A stretch of 64,000 nucleotides of DNA, from NCBI GenBank assembly GCA_964016885.1, contig OZ024743.1:205282001-205346000 (forward strand), written 5' to 3'. The number at the start of each line of letters is the position of its first letter. Position 1 is the first letter of the stretch. A model generated the notes under the pieces. The model was not told the DNA's origin and ran no database searches. It worked only from the letters and a program-made list of their open reading frames with translations. The DNA is from Eledone cirrhosa (taxonomy: Eukaryota). Position numbers and translations under genes: made by a program. Of this stretch, positions 14,727 to 64,000 are shown in pieces.

Positions 14727-15580
14727 ATACAAAAAGTTATGAAACGAAAGGAGCTGGTTGGTTACTAAAAACAAGGTTTAGGATGGTGGTTAGGATGGAA
14801 CAGGAGGAGAAAGGAAGAAAGGAGTTTCCATCGTCAGCTGTAAATGTTTCCCGAACCAATGTTTCGGCGCTGAATTACAGGACATTGGTGTAGTTTGGGT
14901 GCGCCCAAGGCCTTTTATTAATCAAAAGGCCAGGTGGAAAAGGGGAAGAGAAAGAGAGAAAAAAAGGAGAGAGAAAAGGAAAGCGAGGGAAAAGAGGAAG
15001 AACAGGGGGGAAAAAGATGAGGAGAGAGGAAGAAAGGGAAAAAATAGGAAAGGAATAGAAGAAAAAAAAAGTGTACAGGTCCCATCGTGGAAAGACACAG
15101 GTGAAAGAAACATGCAAAAAGGTAACCGTGGAAAAATAGGGAAAGTAAGTTGTGGCCAACCTGGGAGACTTTAGCCTGGTGGTCAGCTACAACTCAGACC
15201 TCGTATAACCGTGCTGCATCTCACATAGACAGGAGAAAGTGAGAGAGAGACACGGGCAGCGTAAAGTGAGGAGGAGAAGAGAAAGGGAGATAATCCAGAA
15301 GGGTTTTTTTTAAACGGTGGTAAAACGTGCCGCAAAGATTGTGGACAGAGAGGTCACCACGGCATGTGTAAACAGGTCAACAATCAAAACCGAACGGATG
15401 GATAGAGAGAGAGAGGGAGAGAGAAAAAAAACGAGAGTGAGGAGGAGAAGGGAGGGTCGATGTGAAAGTGTGGAGGGTACACAGATCGACCAAAGCAGGT
15501 AGGGTCACAGCGGTAAATACAAAAAGTTATGAAACGAAAGGAGCTGTGTGGTTACTAAAAACAAGGTTTAGGATGATGGT
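14727..15580 (-). mobile_element. Non-coding, terminally redundant element (790-bp unit plus 64-bp direct repeat) in (TA)n; Penelope/retrozyme-like
   Basis: Direct repeats 14727-14790 and 15517-15580; hammerhead core motifs on minus at 14828-14889. Confidence 0.6.
14828..14889 (-). ncRNA. Candidate hammerhead ribozyme with permuted strand order
   Basis: ACCAAUGU-C-CUGUAA...CC-GAAA-CAUUGGU...UUACAG-CUGACGA-U-GG; 8-bp stem III, 6-bp stem I, 2-bp stem II. Confidence 0.5.
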
Positions 15581-15613
15581 ATGTATATATATATATATAT
15601 ATATATGCATATA

Positions 15614-15649
<36 letters not shown>

Positions 15650-15654
15650 CATAT

Positions 15655-18640
15655 ACCTTAAAGGGTCGCTCTAACGAGGTTGTAGAAATGCTTGAACGTA
15701 AGGAGGTCGATGTTTGTTGTATTCAAGAGACCAGGTGGAGGGGAGGGTTGGCTAGATTCATCATGGGTAAAGAACGATGCTATAAGCTTTTCTGGGTGGG
15801 AAATGACAATGGGTTGGGTGGGGTAGGAATCATGTTAGCAGAAAAATGGGTGGATAAGATAATAGACGTAAATAGAGTGAACGACAGAATAATTAAAATA
15901 AGACTTGTCCTCAATAAAACTACGGTGACAGTAATATCTGCGTACACACCCCAATCCGGACTGCCCGGCGCTATAAAAGACAGATTCTACGAGACACTGA
16001 TGCTCGCTACCTCCCAAATAACCGACAGTGACTATATAGTTATTGCAGGCGACCTAAATGGTCACGTTGGACAACATTGTGACGGCTATGACGGAATCCA
16101 TGGAGGCTATGGGTTCGGTACTAGAAATGAAGAAGGCTCCAGAATCCTGGAATTCTGCGACGCAAATAACTTAACTATCTGTAACACTAACTTCAAAAAA
16201 CGAGACAATCACTTGATCACCTATAGATCGGGGGAACACACAAGCCAGGTAGATTATATCCTTACCAGAAGACGTGACAGAGTGTCTGTTGTTAACACTA
16301 AATCCCTCCCCCATGAACAATTCACCTCCCAACATAGACTGATAATTAGCGACCTCATAGTCAGGACGAGACGTACTAGACAGCGGAAGAGGACTATCCT
16401 CAGGAGAAAAATATGGAAGCTAAAGGACCCCATAGCCAGAAATAAATTTCAAAGCATATTACTTGACGCTTTCGACAGTAAGGAAGAGCAATTAGAGTCG
16501 TATAATATAGAGGAACAGTGGGAATTCCTGAGAGCAAACCTGCTGATGGCGGCAGACGAAGTCTGTGGCTGGAGCAGGCCTGTAGGTAGGAGGAGAGTAA
16601 CATGGTGGTGGAACAGTAAGGTAGAGGAGTCAATTAAGGCCAAAAAGCAGGCTTGGAAAGCATGGCGGGATGGGGGAAGTAGAGAAGACTATCAAGTGGC
16701 CAGGAGGGAAGCTAGGAGACAAGTGTACTTCGCAAGAAGGGAAGCAGAGGAAAGAAAGTTCAAGCATGTTCTACAACGTGAGGACCAAAAACGTGAGGTG
16801 TTCAGGATTGCCAGGCAATGTATCAAGGAAAACCGTGATATTGTCGGGGAGAAGTGTGTACTTAACGATGATGGCATACTTGCCATCACCGACACTGATA
16901 AGAAGGTAGCTTGGAAGTGTCACTACGAAAGGCTTCTAAATGAGGAGAACAAATGGGAGAAAGACAGTCTCCCCCACATCGACCCAATAGAGGGACCAGC
17001 AGCAAGGCAATCAAAGATATGAAGACGGGTAAGGCGGCTGGTCCTTCGGAAATAGTTGCTGAGATGCTGAAGGCATCTGGTTCGGTAGGACACACCATGG
17101 TCACCCGGATAGTTAACCAAGTCGTACAGAATGAGGTTGTTCCGAAGGACTGGCGTAGCAGCATCATCGTTAACTGCTATAAGGGAAAAGGAGATGCCCT
17201 AGATAGGAGTAACTATAGAGGCATTAAATTAATCGACCAGGTCATGAAGGTCACGGAAAAAGTAATAGCGCAACTAATCGGAGAGAGAATTGATCTAGAT
17301 GAAATGCAGTTCGGGTTTGTGTCAGGCAAAAGTACCACAGACGCTCTTTTCATTGTACGACAACTACAGGAGAAGTACCTAGCTAAAAGTAAACCCCTAT
17401 ACTTAGCTTTCGTCGACTTGGAGAAAGCCTTCGACAGAGTCCTCCGTTCCATTATCTGGTGGTCTCTTAGAAAACTAGGTGTTGACGAATGGCTTGTGAG
17501 AGCTATACAAGCCATGTATAAAGAAACAGTCAGTAAGGTTAGAATTAACAACGAATATAGTGAAGAAGAGTTTAGCGTAAAAGTTGGTGTCCATCAGGGC
17601 TCTGTTCTTAGTCCCCTACTATTTATTATTGCCCTTCAGGCTATAACAGAGGAGTTCAAGACCGGCTGCCCATGGGAACTCCTATACGCAGATGATCTAA
17701 CGCTCATAGCTGAATCAATGACCGAACTAGAGAAGAAATTCCAAACATGGAAGCACGGCCTAGAATCAAAAGGCCTTAAAATTAACCTGGCTAAGACTAA
17801 AGTTCTAGTTTGTAGGAAAGAAAATAAGGCGGCAGTCCCATCTGGGAAATGGCCATGCTCAGTGTGTAGGAAAGGCGTAGGTAGAAACTCCATTTTATGT
17901 CCCAAATGCAAAGTATGGGTGCATAAAAGATGTAGTGGGATCACAGGTAAGCTAACTAAGAACATAGATTTTACATGTGGCCGGTGCTCTGGTGCAATAA
18001 GTAGCAGCAAGTGCCCACAAAATACTAGCTCCTTCAACTGTGCAGAGGGTTCTATAGAAATAGTGGACAGCTTCCGTTACCTGGGTGATAAAATCAGCAG
18101 TGGGGGAGGGTGCTCTGAAAGTACAGTAGCTAGAGTCAGAACTGGATGGAAAAAGTTCAGAGAGCTTATACCACTATTAGCCGCTAGAGGGTTCTCCCTA
18201 AAAATGAAAGGCAGGTTATACGATGCCTGCATACGAACAGCAATGCTGCATGGCAGTGAGACCTGGGCATTGTGTGCAGAGGATATACGCAGACTAGAGA
18301 GGAACGAAGCTTGCATGCTCCGCTGGATGTGCAATAGTAATATACGTGAACGGCAAAGCATAAACGAACTAAGGAAAAAATTAGAAATAAGAGGGATCAG
18401 ATGTTGTTTACTCGAGAGAAGGCTACGTTGGTACGGTCACATGATGCGCATGAAAGACGACAGCTGTATAACAAAGTGAAGGGCAATAAAGATAGACGGT
18501 AGCCACGGAGTAGGCAGACCCAGAAAAACATGGGACGAGCTGATAAATTCCGACCTCACACGCTTACACCTCTCCAAGACAATGTCACTGGACCGAGACC
18601 TTTGGCGGTACTCAGTAATAGAGAAGACCCGCCTTACCTA
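15655..18640 (+). pseudogene. RTE APE-RT polyprotein pseudogene
   Basis: 25-nt deletion at about 17001 (relative to the copy at 20860) shifts frame; premature TGA at 18477-18479. Confidence 0.92.
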
Positions 18641-20718: not shown

Positions 20719-20757
20719 ATACATACATACATACATACATATATACATATATATATA

Positions 20758-22934
20758 TGCTGGTCCCTCTATTGGATCGATGTGGGGGAGACTGTCTTTC
20801 TCCTATTTATTCTCCTGGAGGAAAGACAGTCTCCCCCACATCGATCCAATAGAGGGACCAGCAATGCGAGTTGAAGGTAGTATAATAAGTAAAGCAATCA
20901 AAGATATGAAGACGAGTAAGGTGGCCGGGCCTTCGGAAATAGTTGCTGAAATGCTGAAAGCATCTGGAACGGTGGGACACACTATGGTCACCCGGATAGT
21001 AAACCAAGTCATACAGAATGGGGCCGTTCCGAAGGACTGGCATAGCAGCATCATCATTAACTGCTACAAGGCTAAAGGAGATGCCCTAGATAGGGGTAAC
21101 TATAGAGGCATTAAATTAATAGACCAGGTCATGAAGGTCACAGAAAAAGTAATAGCGCAACTAATCAGAGAACGAATTGATCTAGATGAAATGCAGTTCG
21201 GGTTTGTGTCAGGTAAAAATACCACAGACGCTCTTTTCATTGTACGACAACTACAAGAGAAGTACCTAGCTAAAAGTAAACCCTTATACTTAGCTTTTGT
21301 TGACTTGGAGAAAGCCTTCGACAGAGTCCCCCGCTCCATTATCTGGTGGGCCCTTAGAAAACTAGGTGTTGATGAATGGCTTGTGAGAGCTATACAAGCC
21401 ATGTATAAAGAAACAGTCAGCAAGGTTAGAATTAACAACGAATATAGTGAAGAGTTTAGCGTAAAAGTTGGTGTTCATCAGGGCTCCGTTCTTAGCCCCC
21501 TACTATTTATTATTGCCCTTCAGGCTATAACAGAGGAGCTCAAGACCGGCTGCCCATGGGAACTCCTATATGCAGATGATCTAACGCTCATAGCTGAATC
21601 AATGGCTGAACTAGAGAAGAAATTCCAAACATGGAAGCATGGCCTAGAATCAAAAGGCCTTAAAGTTAACTTGTCTAAGACTAAAGTTCTAGTTTGTAGG
21701 AAGGAAAATAGGGTACCGGTCTCATCTGGGAAATGGCCATGCTCAGTGTGTAGGAAAGGAGTAGGCAGAAACTCCATTTTATGTCCCAAATGCAAAGTAT
21801 GGGTGCATAAAAGATGTAGTGGGATCACAGGTAAGCTAACTAAGAATATAGATTTTATATGTGGCCGGTGCTCTAGTGCAATAAGTAGCAGCAAGTGCCC
21901 ACAGAATACTAGCTCATTCCATTGCACAGATGGTTCTATAGAAATAGTGGACACCTTCCGTTTCCTGGGTGACAAAATCAGCAGTGGGGGAGGGTGCTCT
22001 GAAAGTACAGTAGCTAGAGTCAGAACGGGATGGAAAAAGTTCAGAGAGCTTATACCACTATTGGCCGCTAAAGGGTTCTCCCTAAAAATGAAAGGCAGGC
22101 TGTATGATGCCTGCATACGAACAGCAATGTTACATGGCAGTGAGACCTGGGCATTGTGTGCAGAGGATATACGCAGACTGGAGAGACACGAAGCTTGCAT
22201 GCTCCGCTGGATGTGTAATAGTAATATACGTGAACGGCAAAGCATAAACGAACTAAGGGAGAAATTAGGAATAAGAGGGATCAGATGTTGTTTACCCAAG
22301 AGAAGACTACGTTGGTATGGTCACGTGATGCACATGAAAGACGACAGCTGTATAAAAAAGTGCAGGGCAATAAAAATAGACGGTAGCCACGGAGTAGGCA
22401 GACCCAGAAAAACATAAGACGACTTGATAAATTCCGACCTCACACAGTTACACCTCTCCAAGACAATGTCACTGGACCGAGATCTTTGGCGCTACACAGT
22501 CATGCAGAAGACCCGCCTTGCCTAAGTACAAAGCGAAACCTACAGTCAGTAGGCACCTCTAACAAAATAACCCCCCCCCCCCCCCCCTCAATAAAAAAAC
22601 CACACACACACACTACCCCCACCCCATCCACCCACCCTTAAATGTGAAGTACGACAACATCCAGTCCGAAACAAATGAGGTCGTTTAAGTGTCACGACAA
22701 AAAAACACAGTCCACGCTGTAATGTGGCCATGTAGGTAACACGGTAAAAACCTCCCAGTCCACACTATAAACGTGGTTGGTGTTAGGAAGGGTATCCAGC
22801 CGTAGAAAACCCGCCAGACAGTCCTATACGAGCAGGACAACAAATCTTGCCTCAAGTGGGAAACCTCCCGTCCAAACCCATGCAAGCATGGAAGATGGAC
22901 GTTAAACGATGATGATGATGATGATGATGATGAT
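20758..22934 (+). mobile_element. 5'-truncated RTE copy with 5' fold-back inversion
   Basis: RT ORF closely similar to the 15655 copy; nonsense codon at 22415-22417; (GAT)n tail; 20758-20816 is inverted element sequence. Confidence 0.95.
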
Positions 22935-40416: not shown

Positions 40417-42193
40417 ATATTTATTAAAATAACAGATTAAAGTTTAAGCAAAGAATCGCTGCTTTCACCCTTAACGGGATCTTCTGAAACTAACAAAGTC
40501 AATCTGTAAACGCAGAAGTGGATATTTCAAAAAACGTTGCAACCGGAGGAAGACAGGAAGATGATACTTTGGTTCGTGGAAACGTTCGCTGGCAAAGAAC
40601 GGGAAAAAACGAATAAGATACGTCATTAATAGGAGCGGTGAAAAACAATTACGCGCAAAGACAGAACCACGTTTATGGTATAAAAGTGGTCGTAGACTAA
40701 TGTTCTCTTAGGTGGTTCATAGAGACGTTCTCTGGCAATGAACGAAAAAAACGAAGATAAAACGTCATATGTGGAGCGTGGGGAACAATAGCACGCAAAG
40801 ACAAAACCACGTAAATGGTATAGCAGAAGTCGTAGACTAAAATTCTAACTAGGAGACCGAATGAATCTCCGCTACAGAGTTAAGAACAAAGTAAATAAAT
40901 ACAATACAGAAGTAATAGAAATAAATAAATACATACCCGCAAACAAATACGTACATACACAAGCATACGCAAAACACTTACCATAGGTGTACAAAACCAC
41001 GCACATATAAATATGTGTGTGTGTATGCGTGTATACAAATAAATAAATAATTAAATAAACGTATATAAATAAATAAATACGTATATAACAAGCGCACACA
41101 CATACCTACATGTTAATACACGAATGTTCGGAGACGTAAGTCAACCAAAACATGAAATACACATATACACACACCCTACATACGTACGAACCTGCATACT
41201 CACACAGACGCAAAACTCCCGTATACACATAGCCAAACCATATGTACCAAACCATAATTTTTTAATTTTTTTTATTCTGGTACATATGGTTTGGCTATGT
41301 GTATACGGGAGTTTTGCGTCTGTGTGAGTATGCAGGTTCGTACGTATGTAGGGTGTGTGTATATGTGTACTTCATGTTTTGGTTGACTTACATCTCCGAA
41401 CATTCGTGTATTTACATGTAGGTATGTGTGTACGCTTGTTATATACGTATTTATTTATTTATATACGTTTATTTAATTATTTATTTATTTGTATACACGC
41501 ATACACACACACATATTTATATGTGCGTGGTTTTGTATACCTATGGTAAGTGTTTTGCGTATGCTTGTGTATGTATGTATTTGTTTGCGGGTATGTATTT
41601 ATTTATTTCTATTACTTCTGTATTGTATTTATTTACTTTGTTCTTAACTCTGTAGCGGAGATTCATTTGGTCTCCTAGTTAGAATTTTAGTCTACGACTT
41701 CTGCTATACCATTTACGTGGTTTTGTCTTTGCGTGCTATTGTTCTCCACGCTCCACATATGATGTATTATCTTCGTTTTTTTCGTTCATTGCCAGAGAAC
41801 GTCTCTATGAACCACCTAAGAGAACATTAGTCTACGACTTCTTTTATACCATAAACGTGGTTCTGTCTTTGCGAGTAATTGTTTTTCACCGCTCCTATTA
41901 ATGACGTATCTTATTCGTTTTTTCCCGTTCTTTGCCAGCGAACGTTTCCACGAACCAAAGTATCGTCTTCCTGTCTTCCTCCGGTTGCAACGTTTTTTGA
42001 AATATCCACTTCTGCGTTTACAGATTGACTTTGTTAGTTTCAGAAGATCCCGTTAAGGGTGAAAGCAGCGATTCTTTGCTTAAACTTTAATCTGTTATTT
42101 TAATAAATATTTGCTCTACGGTTCTTATATATTTGATATATATTTATCCTTATCGAGCCCTCTTTGGATTTTAGTCTTGAAATTTATTATTAT

Positions 42194-58800: not shown

Positions 58801-59492
58801 CCTGGGCATTTGTATAGAGACATCAGGGTCACAAAAAGCGATGGTAGGTGTAATTTGAGGGAGATTTAGCTGCTATTTCTTGCAGGTGTCTTTCTTCTTT
58901 GATATTTCCGTCATCTGACAGCAATCTCTCAACTTATTTAATGAGGAAATTTCTCAATTTTTTCATGATGTATATAATTTGAATGTTGTTTCAAAATAAA
59001 CAGTATTTAAAAAAATATTCTTGTTTCTATTTTAATCTCAGCTTAATACTTTTCTTCTCTCATTTTAATTTAATCTTAATTAGACAGCAATAAATCTGTG
59101 TGTGAAAAGACTTTTAATGGGGATTCCATTATCCTTTCTTTACCAAATTTCTAGTGAAAGACACTTCCTATCATTTTCCCATAATATTGAATATCAATAA
59201 TTTGGAGAGGGATTTAGTTATATAACTTTCTTATTATTTGGCTGATGTGTGGAACATAACTTAACATAGGTTCTTACATAAAATTATGATGGAAGGTTGT
59301 TTCATAAATATAAACACTTTAAAATAATGAAAAAATTGAATTATAGACCAGTAGCAGTTTCAAGTGTTTTGGTATCAAAAAGGTGTTTCTGGTATCAAAA
59401 AGGTGTTTCTGGTATCAAGAGGTGTTTCTGGCTGTCTACATAGCTTGGATTGATTACCTGCAAACTAATATTATAGTAATACCTGTAGTATG

Positions 59493-59748
59493 TGTAGTTA
59501 GAAAAAGCTATCTCACTTACCGCTTTTCACAGGCGCCGCTAAATTCCACTGCAGGTACTCCTCTTCCACGTGCGTCCGACTGCTTAACACCGGGAGCTGC
59601 CCAAAACTCGCGTCCACACCGTGTGCTGGTCGCCACTAGAGAGAGACCCTCTCCTGGCCCTTCCGGTCGAGCATCATTCCGGCCAAAGACCCCTTCCGGT
59701 CGAGCACTCCCCCCGCCTCCGGCCACCGCACGCCACACCATACCCACA
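59493..59748 (-). repeat. 3' LTR
   Basis: 256 bp, preceded on minus by the polypurine tract. Confidence 0.95.
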
Positions 59749-59761
59749 CGCCCCCCTGATC

Positions 59762-62443
59762 TCAAGGATCAATTTCCCCCTCGTCCCTCTGCATATGAAA
59801 GTCTGCCGTCCAGATTGGTGGTCTACGACTTCGTTGCGATCTTCGTAGTATTGGGGCAGAGCTCTGGGTTTCCACCTCATCTTGGGTTTCCTCTTCCTCG
59901 GAGTCCGTCGACACAGTGATTCTTCTTACATCCAGGACATGACGTGGTACCCCGTCCACGGACACATTGTTCTTTGAATTTACCGCCGTCACCGTTCCCC
60001 TTCCCCATTGAGATGTGCAACGTGCATCTGGGGGCTTAACCCAGACTTCTTTGCCCACCTGCACAAATGCACTCTCTCTCCCCACTGGCCGGTGTGGTGG
60101 CGTGCACGGGTGCCGCCACTCGTATTTGAATACTGCTCTATGTGGCACCGATTCCTCGACCTGTCCAATCCGAGGGGACATATTGTACCAGAACACTGCC
60201 TCCATTGGTGAGATATGGCCCCGCTCCGCCATTGCCTTGATCGTCCGGTGGTGTCGCTCCACGATTCCATTCCCGCTCGGCCTGTGCGGCGCTCTGAAGA
60301 AACGATCCACCTTCCATCCATCGAGCATCTCCCTCAGTGCCTCCGAGCGGAACGCTGCGCTGTTGTCCATCAGCAGTTCATCCACAGGGCCCCGCTCCAA
60401 GAACACCTCTCTCAACGTCTGCACGATTTCCTCGGCCGTTCCAGTCTTCATCTCCCTCCATATCGCCATTCGACCTGGTCCACAGTCGACCATCGAGAGG
60501 TACGTTCCCTGCCGGTAGTGCGTCACATCCACCGCTAATCGCTTCCAGTCGCGATCCACCGGGAGGCTTCCCGTTTCGTGTACACCTGGGGCGGGATCAA
60601 TGGACTGACATCGGACGCAGCCTCTAACCACCCCCCCGATCACTGTGTCTGCTAACGTCCGAGTCGATTCTCCTGGCTAGGAACAGGCTCCTATCCACCC
60701 CATGCGGTGCATGTCATGCAACCCCTTCAGGTCTAACTCGGTCAGCCGACATACGGCAGCTATCTCATCCTCTACCTCCTCCGGCGCTTCACATCCAGGC
60801 TTTCTTCACTCTAGTTAAGATGTCCGCCCTATTTTTCTCTGAGGGCACGAACACTACGCTCAGCTTCAGGTCGAACTCGGTGGCCAGCTCTCCTAACGTT
60901 CCCAGGCGGCGCTTTATCAGCATCTCCGCCACGCCTCTCTTCTCACTGGTGAGCACTGATCTTACCCATCCGAGTACAGTAGCTGAGTCGGTGCGTATCT
61001 CGATGGTGCGCAGCCCCCACTGCAGGGCGAGGTTCACCCCTCTCAACACCGCGTCCAGCTCGGCCACATTGATGTGGCTGCAGTCGTCCTTTTTTCTAAG
61101 CCAGGCTGCATCCTCGACCTCAACACCTCCTATCTCCGTGACACCCAGCGCTATGCTGCTGGCATCGCACCATACGGTCCCGCTCCGTGATTTGGGAACG
61201 TACCAGCGTCCCCGCACTGGGTCGTCGGCCTTCACCCTCCCCATGATCTCCTGCATCATGGCCACCGTTCTCTCTCCCACTCTGTCACTCCAAGTCACCC
61301 CTCCCGCTCGTCTCTTGACATAGCTGCATGCCGTCCGGAGCCACACAGCGATTGGGTAGTGACCCACCAGCTTTCCACACACCGAGAAAAGCTCCTGCCT
61401 ATTCATACTTGGGCCCAGTTCCGGAACTTCGTTTCCCCTCTGGAACACCAAAACGCCCGTCTTATCTCGCCGTAGCCTAAGTCCTAGCGCGGCTCCTCCC
61501 TCCAATGATCTTCGGTGCGGAGCTCAGCCCGAAACCGAGCCTGGTCAGGCAATATGTCCGGCCCTTATACCTGACCAGCTGATACCGCCAGAGCTTCTCA
61601 TCTATATGCAACTGCAAGTAAGCCGACTTTAGATCCACGATCGCTGAACCCCCCCCGTCATAAGTCTCCACTCACGCAGGGTTTCCCCACAGACATCTGT
61701 GACCTCGCCACCCGTGTGGCATGACACGTGCTCGTTCAGCTCTCGATAGTCCAGCACCGGCCTCACCTTGCTCTTCGTGGGTTGCACCACCGCCATCAAC
61801 GGCAATACTCCGCACTTCACCTCCTCCTTCCAGGGAAGCAGTATGCTCTCTTCGATCCATCTCTCTACTTCTCGCTCCTAGCGTTTCCATTCAATGTGTG
61901 TTGATAGCAGCCCACTTTGGTCTTCAGTGTTGGTGGTTCTCCCTTCCAGTACCACTCAACAACCCATCGCTGCCCATCAAACACGGCCTTGAAGTCTTTG
62001 TCCTGTACAGTGTAAGCGGGGTATTCCTCCTCGTGGGCCTTCTGGTTCTCATGACGTGCACTCACAGCGCATACCGATGCAGCGCCGCCAAACGACACAC
62101 CGACATTGTTCACCGTGACGCCCCCTAGACGGCCAATCACGTCCATGCCCATAACCACGCCGATCCCATCCACCACGATGGCAGAAAGCCTTATCGTCCT
62201 TCCCCGTACCGCTATTTCCATCTCGCTGCGACCTCGGCATTCAATTTTCCTGCCGTCGACTGCCCTTACGCTGCTCTTCCCTCCCCACCTCTGTGCCACC
62301 CCCGCGGTCACCAGTGTCGTCGTACAGCCCGTATCCACGAGGGCTCGCTGTGGCTTCCCCCTCACGAAGACTTCCACCATGGGCAGCGCCGCTACTCGTA
62401 AGGGGCAACTACCGGTGCAGTAGTTCCCCTTGGATCGTTTCCC
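59762..62443 (-). pseudogene. pol pseudogene (protease, partial RT, RNase H, integrase)
   Basis: ALVDTGC; VRPVLDYRELN, DLKSAYLQ, LGFGL; WCDAS, HINVAEL, TDS; H..H/CVRC, DVTH, DN, GIVER; several stops and frameshifts, and the YxDD segment is missing at about 61505. Confidence 0.9.
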
Positions 62444-63150
62444 TGGTCGCAGTTAGTAGCGATGTGGCCTGGTCGCTTACACCGGTAGCAAATTATCTCC
62501 GGCTTCGACTCTCTACAGTCTCTAGCCATATGCGGGCCCTGGCACCTAAAACAGCGCCCCCTAAATTCGCGCGGACGGCCTCCCGAGGTTGCCTCCCTTT
62601 CACCATTTCGCTGCCAGGTGTCCTGAGCCTCCGTAGTTGCTATCGCCGCAACACTCTTTTTGGCATCTTCCTCTATGATCCGGGCTTGTTCCACCAGTGA
62701 ACGCATTTCCATCTCTTTATACACCGGGACTTGCTGCAGTTTCACCGCTATGTCGTCCGGAAATCCATTGATGAACGCCAACCGCACCGTGCGTTCGCAT
62801 TCCGCCTGGTAACCGGCCAACATAGCCAACCGCCTTATTTCCGCTGCGAAAATGTCGACGCGCTCACCATTCCACCTGATTCTCGCCAGCTTAGCAAAAG
62901 CCGCCAACGGTCCCTCGGCAAATGCATCCATCAGACGCCTCTCAATCTTCTGCACATCTCTTTGGCTGTGCTCGTCCAACTCAAGGAAGAGTACCAGAGC
63001 GTCGCCCTCGAGGTACAATGCCATGAAGCCGGCCACGTCTTCTATCTTCTGCAAGCCTGCGATCAGCCGAACCTTCCGCAGCCAAGCGACAACATCACCT
63101 TCCCCGGTGAATGCCCTGTTAGCTTCGTTCATCCGTAGTCTTGTCGCCAT
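62392..63150 (-). CDS. gag: Gag with two CCHC zinc knuckles
   Basis: Intact 252-aa ORF; CFRCQGPHMARDC and CYRCKRPGHIATNC. Confidence 0.88.
   Translation of the reverse strand: MATRLRMNEANRAFTGEGDVVAWLRKVRLIAGLQKIEDVAGFMALYLEGDALVLFLELDEHSQRDVQKIERRLMDAFAEGPLAAFAKLARIRWNGERVDIFAAEIRRLAMLAGYQAECERTVRLAFINGFPDDIAVKLQQVPVYKEMEMRSLVEQARIIEEDAKKSVAAIATTEAQDTWQRNGEREATSGGRPREFRGRCFRCQGPHMARDCRESKPEIICYRCKRPGHIATNCDQGNDPRGTTAPVVAPYE
62400..62443 (-). promoter_or_regulatory. -1 ribosomal frameshift signal
   Basis: G GGA AAC in gag phase at 62443-62437, 5-nt spacer, hairpin AAGGGG-AACUACU/GGUAGUU-G-CCCCUU; the -1 frame is open into the protease. Confidence 0.8.
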
Positions 63151-63178: not shown

Positions 63179-63212
<34 letters not shown>

Positions 63213-63221
63213 TATTCAGTC

Positions 63222-63233
63222 GCCGAAATAGCT
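63222..63233 (-). other. Primer-binding site complementary to tRNA-Phe nt 1-12
   Basis: AGCTATTTCGGC directly after the 5' LTR; reverse complement GCCGAAATAGCT. Confidence 0.7.
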
Positions 63234-63498
63234 TGTAGTTAGAAAAAGCTATCTCACTTACCGCTTTTCACAGGCGCCGCTAAATTCCACTGCAGGTACT
63301 CCTCTTCCACGTGCGTCCGACTGCTTAACACCGGGAGCTGCCCAAAACTCGCGTCCACACCGTGTGCTGGTCACCACTAGAGAGAGACCCTCTCCTGGCC
63401 CTTCCGGCCAAAGACCCCTTCCGGTCGAGCACTCAAAAACCCCTTCCGGTCGAGCACTCCCCCCGCCTCCGGCCACCGCACGCCACACCATACCCACA
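63234..63498 (-). repeat. 5' LTR
   Basis: 265 bp, near-identical to the 3' LTR apart from an internal repeat rearrangement and one substitution noticed. Confidence 0.95.
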
Positions 63499-64000
63499 GT
63501 ATGTATAGTGTGAGTGGGTGTCTGTCTGAGTATGTATGTTGAGTGTGTAGTGTCAACTCCAGCAGGAACCAAATCCAATATACTACATTAACGTACACCC
63601 AGACTTAACATTTTGTTTTCTTTCTTCTTGCCGTATTTCTAGATAATTGCTATATGGAATGAGTATTCCAGTTGTTTGATCAGTGGAACAGCTTGCTCAT
63701 GAAATTAGCTAAACATTCCACAGACACGTGTACCTTTAATGTAATTCTCAGGGAGATTCAGTCTGACAGTGTGTGACAAGATTAGCCCTTTGAATAACAG
63801 GTACGGTTCATGTGATGGGATTCCAAACAGTCTCTGTCGACCAAGGTTCACTTACAAGACATGGGTTAACCTGAGGCTATGGTAAATGACACTAACACAA
63901 GATGCCCTACAATGGGATTGAGGAACAAGTTTCTTAACCATTTAGCCAACTAGATTATATGATGAAATATTTTTTTTGCGTATGTGTTCATTTAAGGATA

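Follow-up and report, generated by a model that had tools for sequence, protein, structure and literature searches.

An apparent primer-binding site for the 5' end of tRNA-Phe in an unplaced lineage of LTR retrotransposons

The window, i.e. the whole stretch of DNA that we analysed, comprises 64,000 nucleotides of the Eledone cirrhosa genome (contig OZ024743.1, positions 205,282,001 to 205,346,000, forward strand). It contains a compact (4 kb) LTR retrotransposon of 4,006 bp, which lies on the minus strand and runs from 63498 to 59493 (Table 1). Direct LTRs, a target duplication, a polypurine tract (PPT), gag, protease (PR), reverse transcriptase (RT), RNase H and a DDE integrase were all found, as expected of an LTR retrotransposon, and the two LTRs are 93% identical, with 9 mismatches and 2 gaps. 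Frameshifts, a stop and a deletion disrupt the pol of this copy. Its RT is affected by frameshifting, and the segment carrying YIDD in the intact relative P0002 is missing from it. In the structure model, DUF7047 is predicted to form the thumb region of RT. A splice-donor-like motif, GGTAAGT, is located close to the U5 end (window 63256-63261, minus strand), and similar motifs occur there in other families of the same genome.

Table 1 Features of the LTR retrotransposon in the window.
Feature	Position	Strand	Evidence or remark
5' LTR, TG...CA, 265 bp	63234..63498	-	repeat pair with 59493-59748
3' LTR, 256 bp	59493..59748	-	
Target-site duplication, CATAC, 5 bp	left 63499..63503, right 59488-59492	-	
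Apparent primer-binding site, complement of tRNA-Phe nt 1-12	63222..63233	-	flush with the LTR
U5 arm	63247..63255	-	can pair with 9 nt at the start of the site; hairpin specific to the family
Leader A-tract	63181..63210	-	length varies from copy to copy
gag, 252 aa	62392..63150	-	ORF and zf-CCHC match; zinc knuckle(s) at C-terminus
Aspartic protease, start of pol	61865..62452	-	ORF and domain match; frame differs from gag
Reverse transcriptase pieces	61477..61877	-	ORFs compared with intact relative P0002
DUF7047 and RNase H	60789..61523	-	terminated by in-frame stop
DDE integrase	59762..60676	-	rve match; C-terminal to RNase H
Polypurine tract (G run)	59749..59763	-	followed by 2-nt spacer, then 3' LTR

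Read on the minus strand, the 5' LTR ends in ...AACTACA and is followed directly by AGCTATTTCGGC, with the CA of the LTR abutting the site without a spacer. The LTR boundary at 63234 is secure because the LTR pair and the CATAC duplication fix it, and a mis-set LTR end is further ruled out by an unrelated relative, L084, which possesses both LTRs. The site is the exact complement of nt 1-12 of the host tRNA-Phe(GAA) (12/12), in an orientation in which a 3' end at tRNA U12 would point into U5. Since tRNA C13 would face the terminal A of the LTR, the pairing ends there. The original prediction had placed a 12-of-12 match exactly between tRNA nt 1 and the LTR boundary, and this was borne out on the minus strand of the window. 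The 12-mer is present once in the window, where the chance expectation is 0.11 even with one mismatch allowed. When the whole 4-kb element was compared with tRNA-Phe plus CCA, the site was the only Watson-Crick match of at least 9 nt, and among 100 shuffled elements the longest match to tRNA-Phe was 11 nt, never 12. A Hemivirus-type site, complementary to the anticodon arm of tRNA iMet or Ile, was ruled out, the only match being to tRNA-Phe nt 1-12.

In the folded RNA, the U5 stretch GAGATAGCT (63255-63247) pairs with the site, in a fold no more stable than those of shuffled sequences (z 0.05). A conserved U5 hairpin was not found in the metagenome relatives described below, with p <0.05 in 1 of 30 junctions tested. 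The earlier suggestion of a U5 hairpin competing with the primer thus stands for the main family of this genome only and not for the rest of the lineage, whose members lack the hairpin.

The host genome (3.0 Gb searched) supplies the matching tRNA. Its tRNA-Phe genes start with GCCGAAATAGCTCAG; the 19-mer start has 234 exact genome matches, against 0 for a reversed control, and ARAGORN calls tRNA-Phe(GAA) from the first G of that start. Both results agree with the 5' sequence given in the original prediction. Because the base before the gene is A while the element base facing position -1 varies, pairing is limited to mature nt 1-12, and pairing with a pre-tRNA leader is ruled out. A long tandem array of tRNA-Phe and tRNA-Asn genes, many of them slightly defective, occupies G000:C4:117.36-117.56 Mb (L034-L042) with a period of about 1.26 kb.

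To keep the site itself out of the selection, copies of the element in the same genome were picked by their match to the DUF7047 profile (40 of 150 scored matches), and the site count was anchored on the LTR end, de novo LTR calls having mis-set several ends. The 5' LTR end was kept in 34 of the 40 copies and missing from the other 6. Among these 34, 25 carry the exact site, 9 carry it with one mismatch and none carries TGG. The motif CA plus 12-mer occurs 527 times in the genome, compared with once for the reversed control, and the exact site stands at 26 of 27 5' junctions among the best 30 matches to an LTR-plus-leader query that itself contained the site. Several families are present in the host genome, and across 30 of the 527 loci, a set found by the 12-mer, only the 12-mer is common to them, their LTR ends and leaders being unrelated. 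Conventional Gypsy loci of this genome (12 of 150 scored) carry the 12-mer in 0/12 cases and a TGG at most 9 nt from the repeat end in 9/12. In one conventional Gypsy family (L377, L378, L381, L382, L384), a spacer of 6-8 nt separates the LTR end from TGG. The base that follows the site in 68 copies of the element is G, A or none. This heterogeneity might reflect non-templated addition after run-off, and CpG decay together with subfamily structure explains it equally well.

Regarding classification, the order gag, PR, RT, RNase H, integrase resembles that of Ty3/Gypsy, and Ty1/copia was ruled out by an integrase that is C-terminal instead of upstream of RT. A DIRS-type element was likewise ruled out, since rve is present in 31/31 Pol proteins and no recombinase family was found; the RT and RNase H motifs have what we take to be a DIRS-like appearance. 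Gypsy-type RNase H (PF17917/PF17919) was detected in 0/31 Pol proteins at E 0.01, and the conventional Gypsy elements of the same genome score 102-120 bits with the Gypsy RNase H profile. The BEL/Pao RNase H profile, Peptidase_A17 (PF05380), also gave 0/31. DUF7047 was recovered in 31/31 Pol proteins, with the RT profile score only near the cut-off. Identity to conventional Gypsy elements of the same genome is 19-35%, mostly over the integrase, and BEL and tyrosine-recombinase references sought in the host genome were not found. Atlas gave weak look-alikes (0.91 and 0.88, 134 shared features) and did not place the lineage; nor did sequence searches or an AlphaFold model (pLDDT 74) built for an intact relative, for which Foldseek returned retroviral and pararetroviral Pol at 10-20% identity. 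Judged by these profiles, we regard the lineage as unplaced, marked by DUF7047 and neither Gypsy nor BEL by its RNase H. Named relatives come from a sea spider, crustaceans, an argonaut, Aplysia, a leafhopper and Hydra, while the site counts cover own-genome and metagenome copies. A sister lineage (P0318, P0319, P0323, P0330, P0334) has DUF7047 within a single gag-pol ORF of 1,340-1,420 aa and is about 34% identical over PR-RT-RH; it is named in the sponge Sycon, its other records being unnamed.

An alignment of 31 Pol sequences retrieved 75 metagenome loci at 27-56% identity, and a collection of viral contigs yielded no relatives. Across these loci, matches to the site with at most two mismatches number 43 on the coding strand (14 exact, 29 near) versus 3 on the other strand (0 exact). 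With site-bearing loci and the window as gag seeds, a gag start plus upstream DNA was found in 35 loci. A 12-nt site is present in 34 of these, in most cases no more than 50 nt from the gag start. The 35th, L122, carries the site with a 1-nt insertion, hence all 35 informative loci have the site or a variant. No listed variant was seen in 38 loci: L122 itself, 35 that stop short of the LTR-gag junction or have no gag start, and 2 with room for a site and no gag homology. At the 32 distinct junctions, which represent 25 gag families at <70% identity, the six positions facing tRNA 7-12 are invariant, and 30 junctions have CA as the end of the LTR. Conservation falls off past tRNA nt 1, where +13 is mixed, and the flanks are unrelated. 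The median gag identity between families is only 34% (four own-genome families included). The 12-mer is therefore conserved both in copies and in distant relatives, as the original prediction required, and the genome copies and the conservation rule out an artefact or a single-copy accident. The proposal of priming by the tRNA-Phe 5' end is supported, in that the host sequence, this conservation and the TGG counts all failed to overturn it.

A primer other than tRNA was also considered, either self-priming of the Tf1 type or a different host RNA with the 12-mer at its end, with the tRNA match a coincidence. The U5 arm of the window family, which pairs with 9 nt of the site, would suit self-priming, but the site stays constant while the LTRs are unrelated, and Watson-Crick complements of the site extend over at most 6 nt in the LTR of the window, over 5-7 nt in those 28 relatives that have at least 200 nt upstream and over no more than 8 nt in 32 relatives. 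Coincidence is opposed by a match that begins exactly at tRNA nt 1 and by site variants that fit other tRNA 5' ends. We consider this explanation very unlikely.

These variants differ mainly at tRNA positions 5-6. The common forms of the site imply partners that start with GCCGAAA, GCCGCGA, GCCGTGA or GCCGGGA, with TAGCT next in each case. For the two commonest variants, real tRNA-Phe(GAA) genes with the complementary start exist (GCCGTGATAGCT and GCCGCGATAGCT); the pattern used for the tRNA gene scan preselected a Phe-type D-loop, most of its matches were archaeal, and it found no gene beginning GCCGGGATAGCT, the fourth form (GCCGGGA). A few matching genes came from bacterial bins, on contigs that are short or tandemly repeated, and were taken for eukaryotic contamination. 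On one such contig (L272-L276, L287, L288), a eukaryote-type tRNA-Phe recurs every 3,738 bp, and contamination is probable. An unselected scan of viral sequences with the same 12-mers gave tRNA starts in 28 of 124 matches and no tRNA in the other 96; the starts were mostly Thr, with 3 Phe, and Thr, Ile or Arg were commoner than Phe. From these matches, we read the variants as tRNA 5' ends, the amino acid being less certain in the metagenome hosts. Three sites are imperfect matches to tRNA-Phe, with L117/L118 matching at 10/12, L123 at 11/12 and L122 carrying its extra base. The site of L133 fits the 5' end of a tRNA other than Phe, presumably tRNA-Lys(UUU).

The distribution of variants also bears on whether the site follows the host. 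Distinct gag families from the same sample have a variant in common in 11 of 16 pairs, against 3.6 expected (p 0.001), including some pairs at 30-40% gag identity; this sharing is partly due to kinship. On the gag tree, the variants need 10 changes versus a minimum of 6, i.e. they recur on several branches and are nonetheless clustered. One family (gag identity >=70%) holds two variants. L084 1727, L119 539 and L100 217 are close relatives (gag identity >=70%) with differing site variants, which suggests a recent primer switch. The overall pattern would fit a site that follows its host, although for the metagenome elements it speaks only indirectly for co-variation with the tRNA-Phe of the individual hosts.

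The opposite end of the tRNA was examined as well. In a bipartite arrangement like that of Ty3 or Ty1, the site would serve as an anchor, and an intact tRNA-Phe would prime from its 3'-CCA end paired elsewhere. Such sites are on record (PMC5371799). However, complementarity to the tRNA 3' end reaches 6 nt at most, both across the 4-kb element and in the stretches up to 60 nt from the 32 junctions. This search used tRNA-Phe, and any CCA end would require TGG. Moreover, the start of DNA synthesis, marked by the LTR end, is already occupied by the 5'-end pairing, and we regard a bipartite site as extremely improbable. Pairing with the tRNA 5' end is very probably the function of the site.

The site, its boundaries, its conservation and its variants that match other tRNA-Phe 5' ends can be read directly from the DNA. 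On this basis, the element and its lineage, whose site complements tRNA-Phe nt 1-12, likely prime their minus strand from a 12-nt 5'-terminal tRNA fragment. Because the LTR end records the start of minus-strand DNA, the extendable hydroxyl should lie at U12 or at most 2 nt away. We propose that, inside the particle, the zinc knuckle of Gag helps to melt the acceptor stem together with the D-stem on its 5' side, which would allow nt 1-12 to anneal. The tRNA would then be cut after U12, most likely by the RNase H of the element acting on an RNA:RNA duplex, as in Tf1, and RT would extend the resulting 3'-OH into U5. Plus-strand synthesis would finally run off the 5' end of the primer, and the regenerated site would stop at tRNA nt 1; such a run-off would account for the sharp boundary there. 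Re-templated by the tRNA of each host, the site could follow its host after transfer.

Three routes to the hydroxyl were weighed, namely a short fragment made by the host, a cut made by the element and a branch from a 2'-OH. By analogy with known systems, we favour a cut after annealing, because the geometry would be that of Tf1 with a host tRNA and because known internal primers arise by cleavage. That the element's own RNase H makes this cut, on an RNA:RNA duplex, is a tentative assignment, with a chance somewhat short of even. In a crude energy sum for unmodified RNA, invasion of the intact tRNA comes to about 0 kcal/mol, compared with -9 for the free fragment. Annealing of an intact tRNA before cutting would therefore need a chaperone (Gag). 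Since a free fragment would bind unaided, a short 5' fragment made by the host and trimmed back to U12 stays in play as a less likely alternative.

The exact end of the primer leaves room for another reading, in which a 5' tRNA-Phe fragment ends at G10 and the site bases AG are copied as DNA and later removed by integrase. In the window family and in two relatives, 2 nt separate the G run from TG, which agrees with this, as do the short spacers before TGG in conventional elements of the same genome. On the other hand, AG is invariant at 32/32 unrelated junctions and pairs with C11-U12, and a duplex of 12 bp exceeds one of 10 bp in strength by about 5 kcal/mol. The 2-nt overhang could equally stem from two ribonucleotides of the primer that were not removed. 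We consider a primer ending at G10 improbable, and a 12-nt fragment is the probable primer.

Alternatively, an intact tRNA might anneal by its 5' end and RT might prime at the 2'-OH of U12, which would give a branched RNA-DNA similar to retron msDNA. This route requires no nuclease, the same site fits it, and 12 nt is below the size of the known classes of 5' tRNA fragments, which are 14 nt and longer. To our knowledge, no LTR element has been shown to prime at a 2'-OH. Where LTR elements use internal primers, the sources, as far as their available text goes, describe cleavage, by RNase P in Ty5 (PMC5371799) and by RNase H in Tf1 (PMC7175516). We consider 2'-OH priming quite unlikely, and cleavage of annealed tRNA-Phe after U12 is retained as the favoured route.

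Compared with known systems, the arrangement combines familiar parts. A 2019 survey lists, in its available sections, three types of primer for LTR retrotransposons, i.e. the entire tRNA, a tRNA half produced by a cut in the anticodon stem, and a self-primer (PMC6317226). The half-tRNA type (Drosophila copia, Ty5, Osser, Bryco and Bianca; Hemivirus type) is alike in its TGG-less site and, on the reading proposed here, would also be alike in its cut host tRNA with an internal 3' end, as described in the portions available of PMC6317226 and PMC5371799. It differs in an anticodon-arm cut, in the use of tRNA iMet or Ile and in being found in copia-type elements; here the site complements tRNA-Phe nt 1-12, is anchored at the 5' terminus and belongs to an element with integrase after RNase H. 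In Tf1 of Schizosaccharomyces pombe, RNase H cuts the element's own annealed transcript after nt 11 to yield the self-primer, and in Tf1/sushi elements a 5'-terminal RNA of 11-12 nt likewise pairs beside the LTR and needs a cut for its 3'-OH (available text of PMC7175516). Unlike Tf1, which is primed by its own transcript, the present lineage would use a host tRNA and shows no self-complement, with an RNase H cut that is only surmised. Canonical 3'-CCA priming (Ty3/Gypsy, BEL/Pao, retroviruses) also relies on a host tRNA, a site beside the 5' LTR, a PPT before the 3' LTR and a 5-bp duplication, whereas the opposite tRNA end would be used here, with TGG in 0/34 copies. TG...CA LTRs and the domain order are common to the Ty3/Gypsy superfamily, but the Gypsy RNase H profile is missing.

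A search of full-text literature found no description of 5'-end tRNA priming or of such a site; Repbase Reports, GyDB and most subscription papers lay outside that search, and a prior description in one of them is rather unlikely though by no means negligible. The literature consulted included PMC7773854, and the atypical primer site in the accessible part of PMC3286476 is unrelated. LTR surveys of molluscs and annelids (PMC6238403, PMC8556966) name no PBS or tRNA in their main text, and those supplements that were searched do not hold the motifs of this site. At least one large recent screen, according to its available text, sought primer sites with the last 12 nt of tRNAs only (PMC13524379), and 5'-end sites would be scored absent for this reason. 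The lineage-wide primer site is real and its geometry apparently undescribed. A fuller reading, which we hold only tentatively and at less than even odds, is that an ancient, unplaced DUF7047 lineage has a fourth LTR priming mode, undescribed in print, in which the tRNA-Phe 5' end would be captured and cut after U12 by the element's own RNase H (Tf1 chemistry in trans), the 12-mer would be re-copied in each cycle and the site would follow the host tRNA.

If true, this would add a fourth type of LTR primer, and a host tRNA used with the 5'-end geometry of Tf1 would link the other two oddities. It would also give very short 5' tRNA fragments a testable role, and it predicts that the elements could be blocked by fragments from the 5' side of tRNA-Phe but not by those from its 3' side. 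The site further provides a 12-nt marker for a lineage that has hundreds of copies in the host genome, with relatives named from molluscs, arthropods and Hydra.

Other repeats were observed elsewhere in the window. An inverted repeat at 40417-42110 has 833-bp arms that are 98% complementary and separated by 28 bp. Two LINE-like ORFs on the plus strand (16944-18479 and 20720-22417) encode a PHD finger directly after the RT domain, and an endonuclease ORF at 15577-17022 lies upstream of the first of them.
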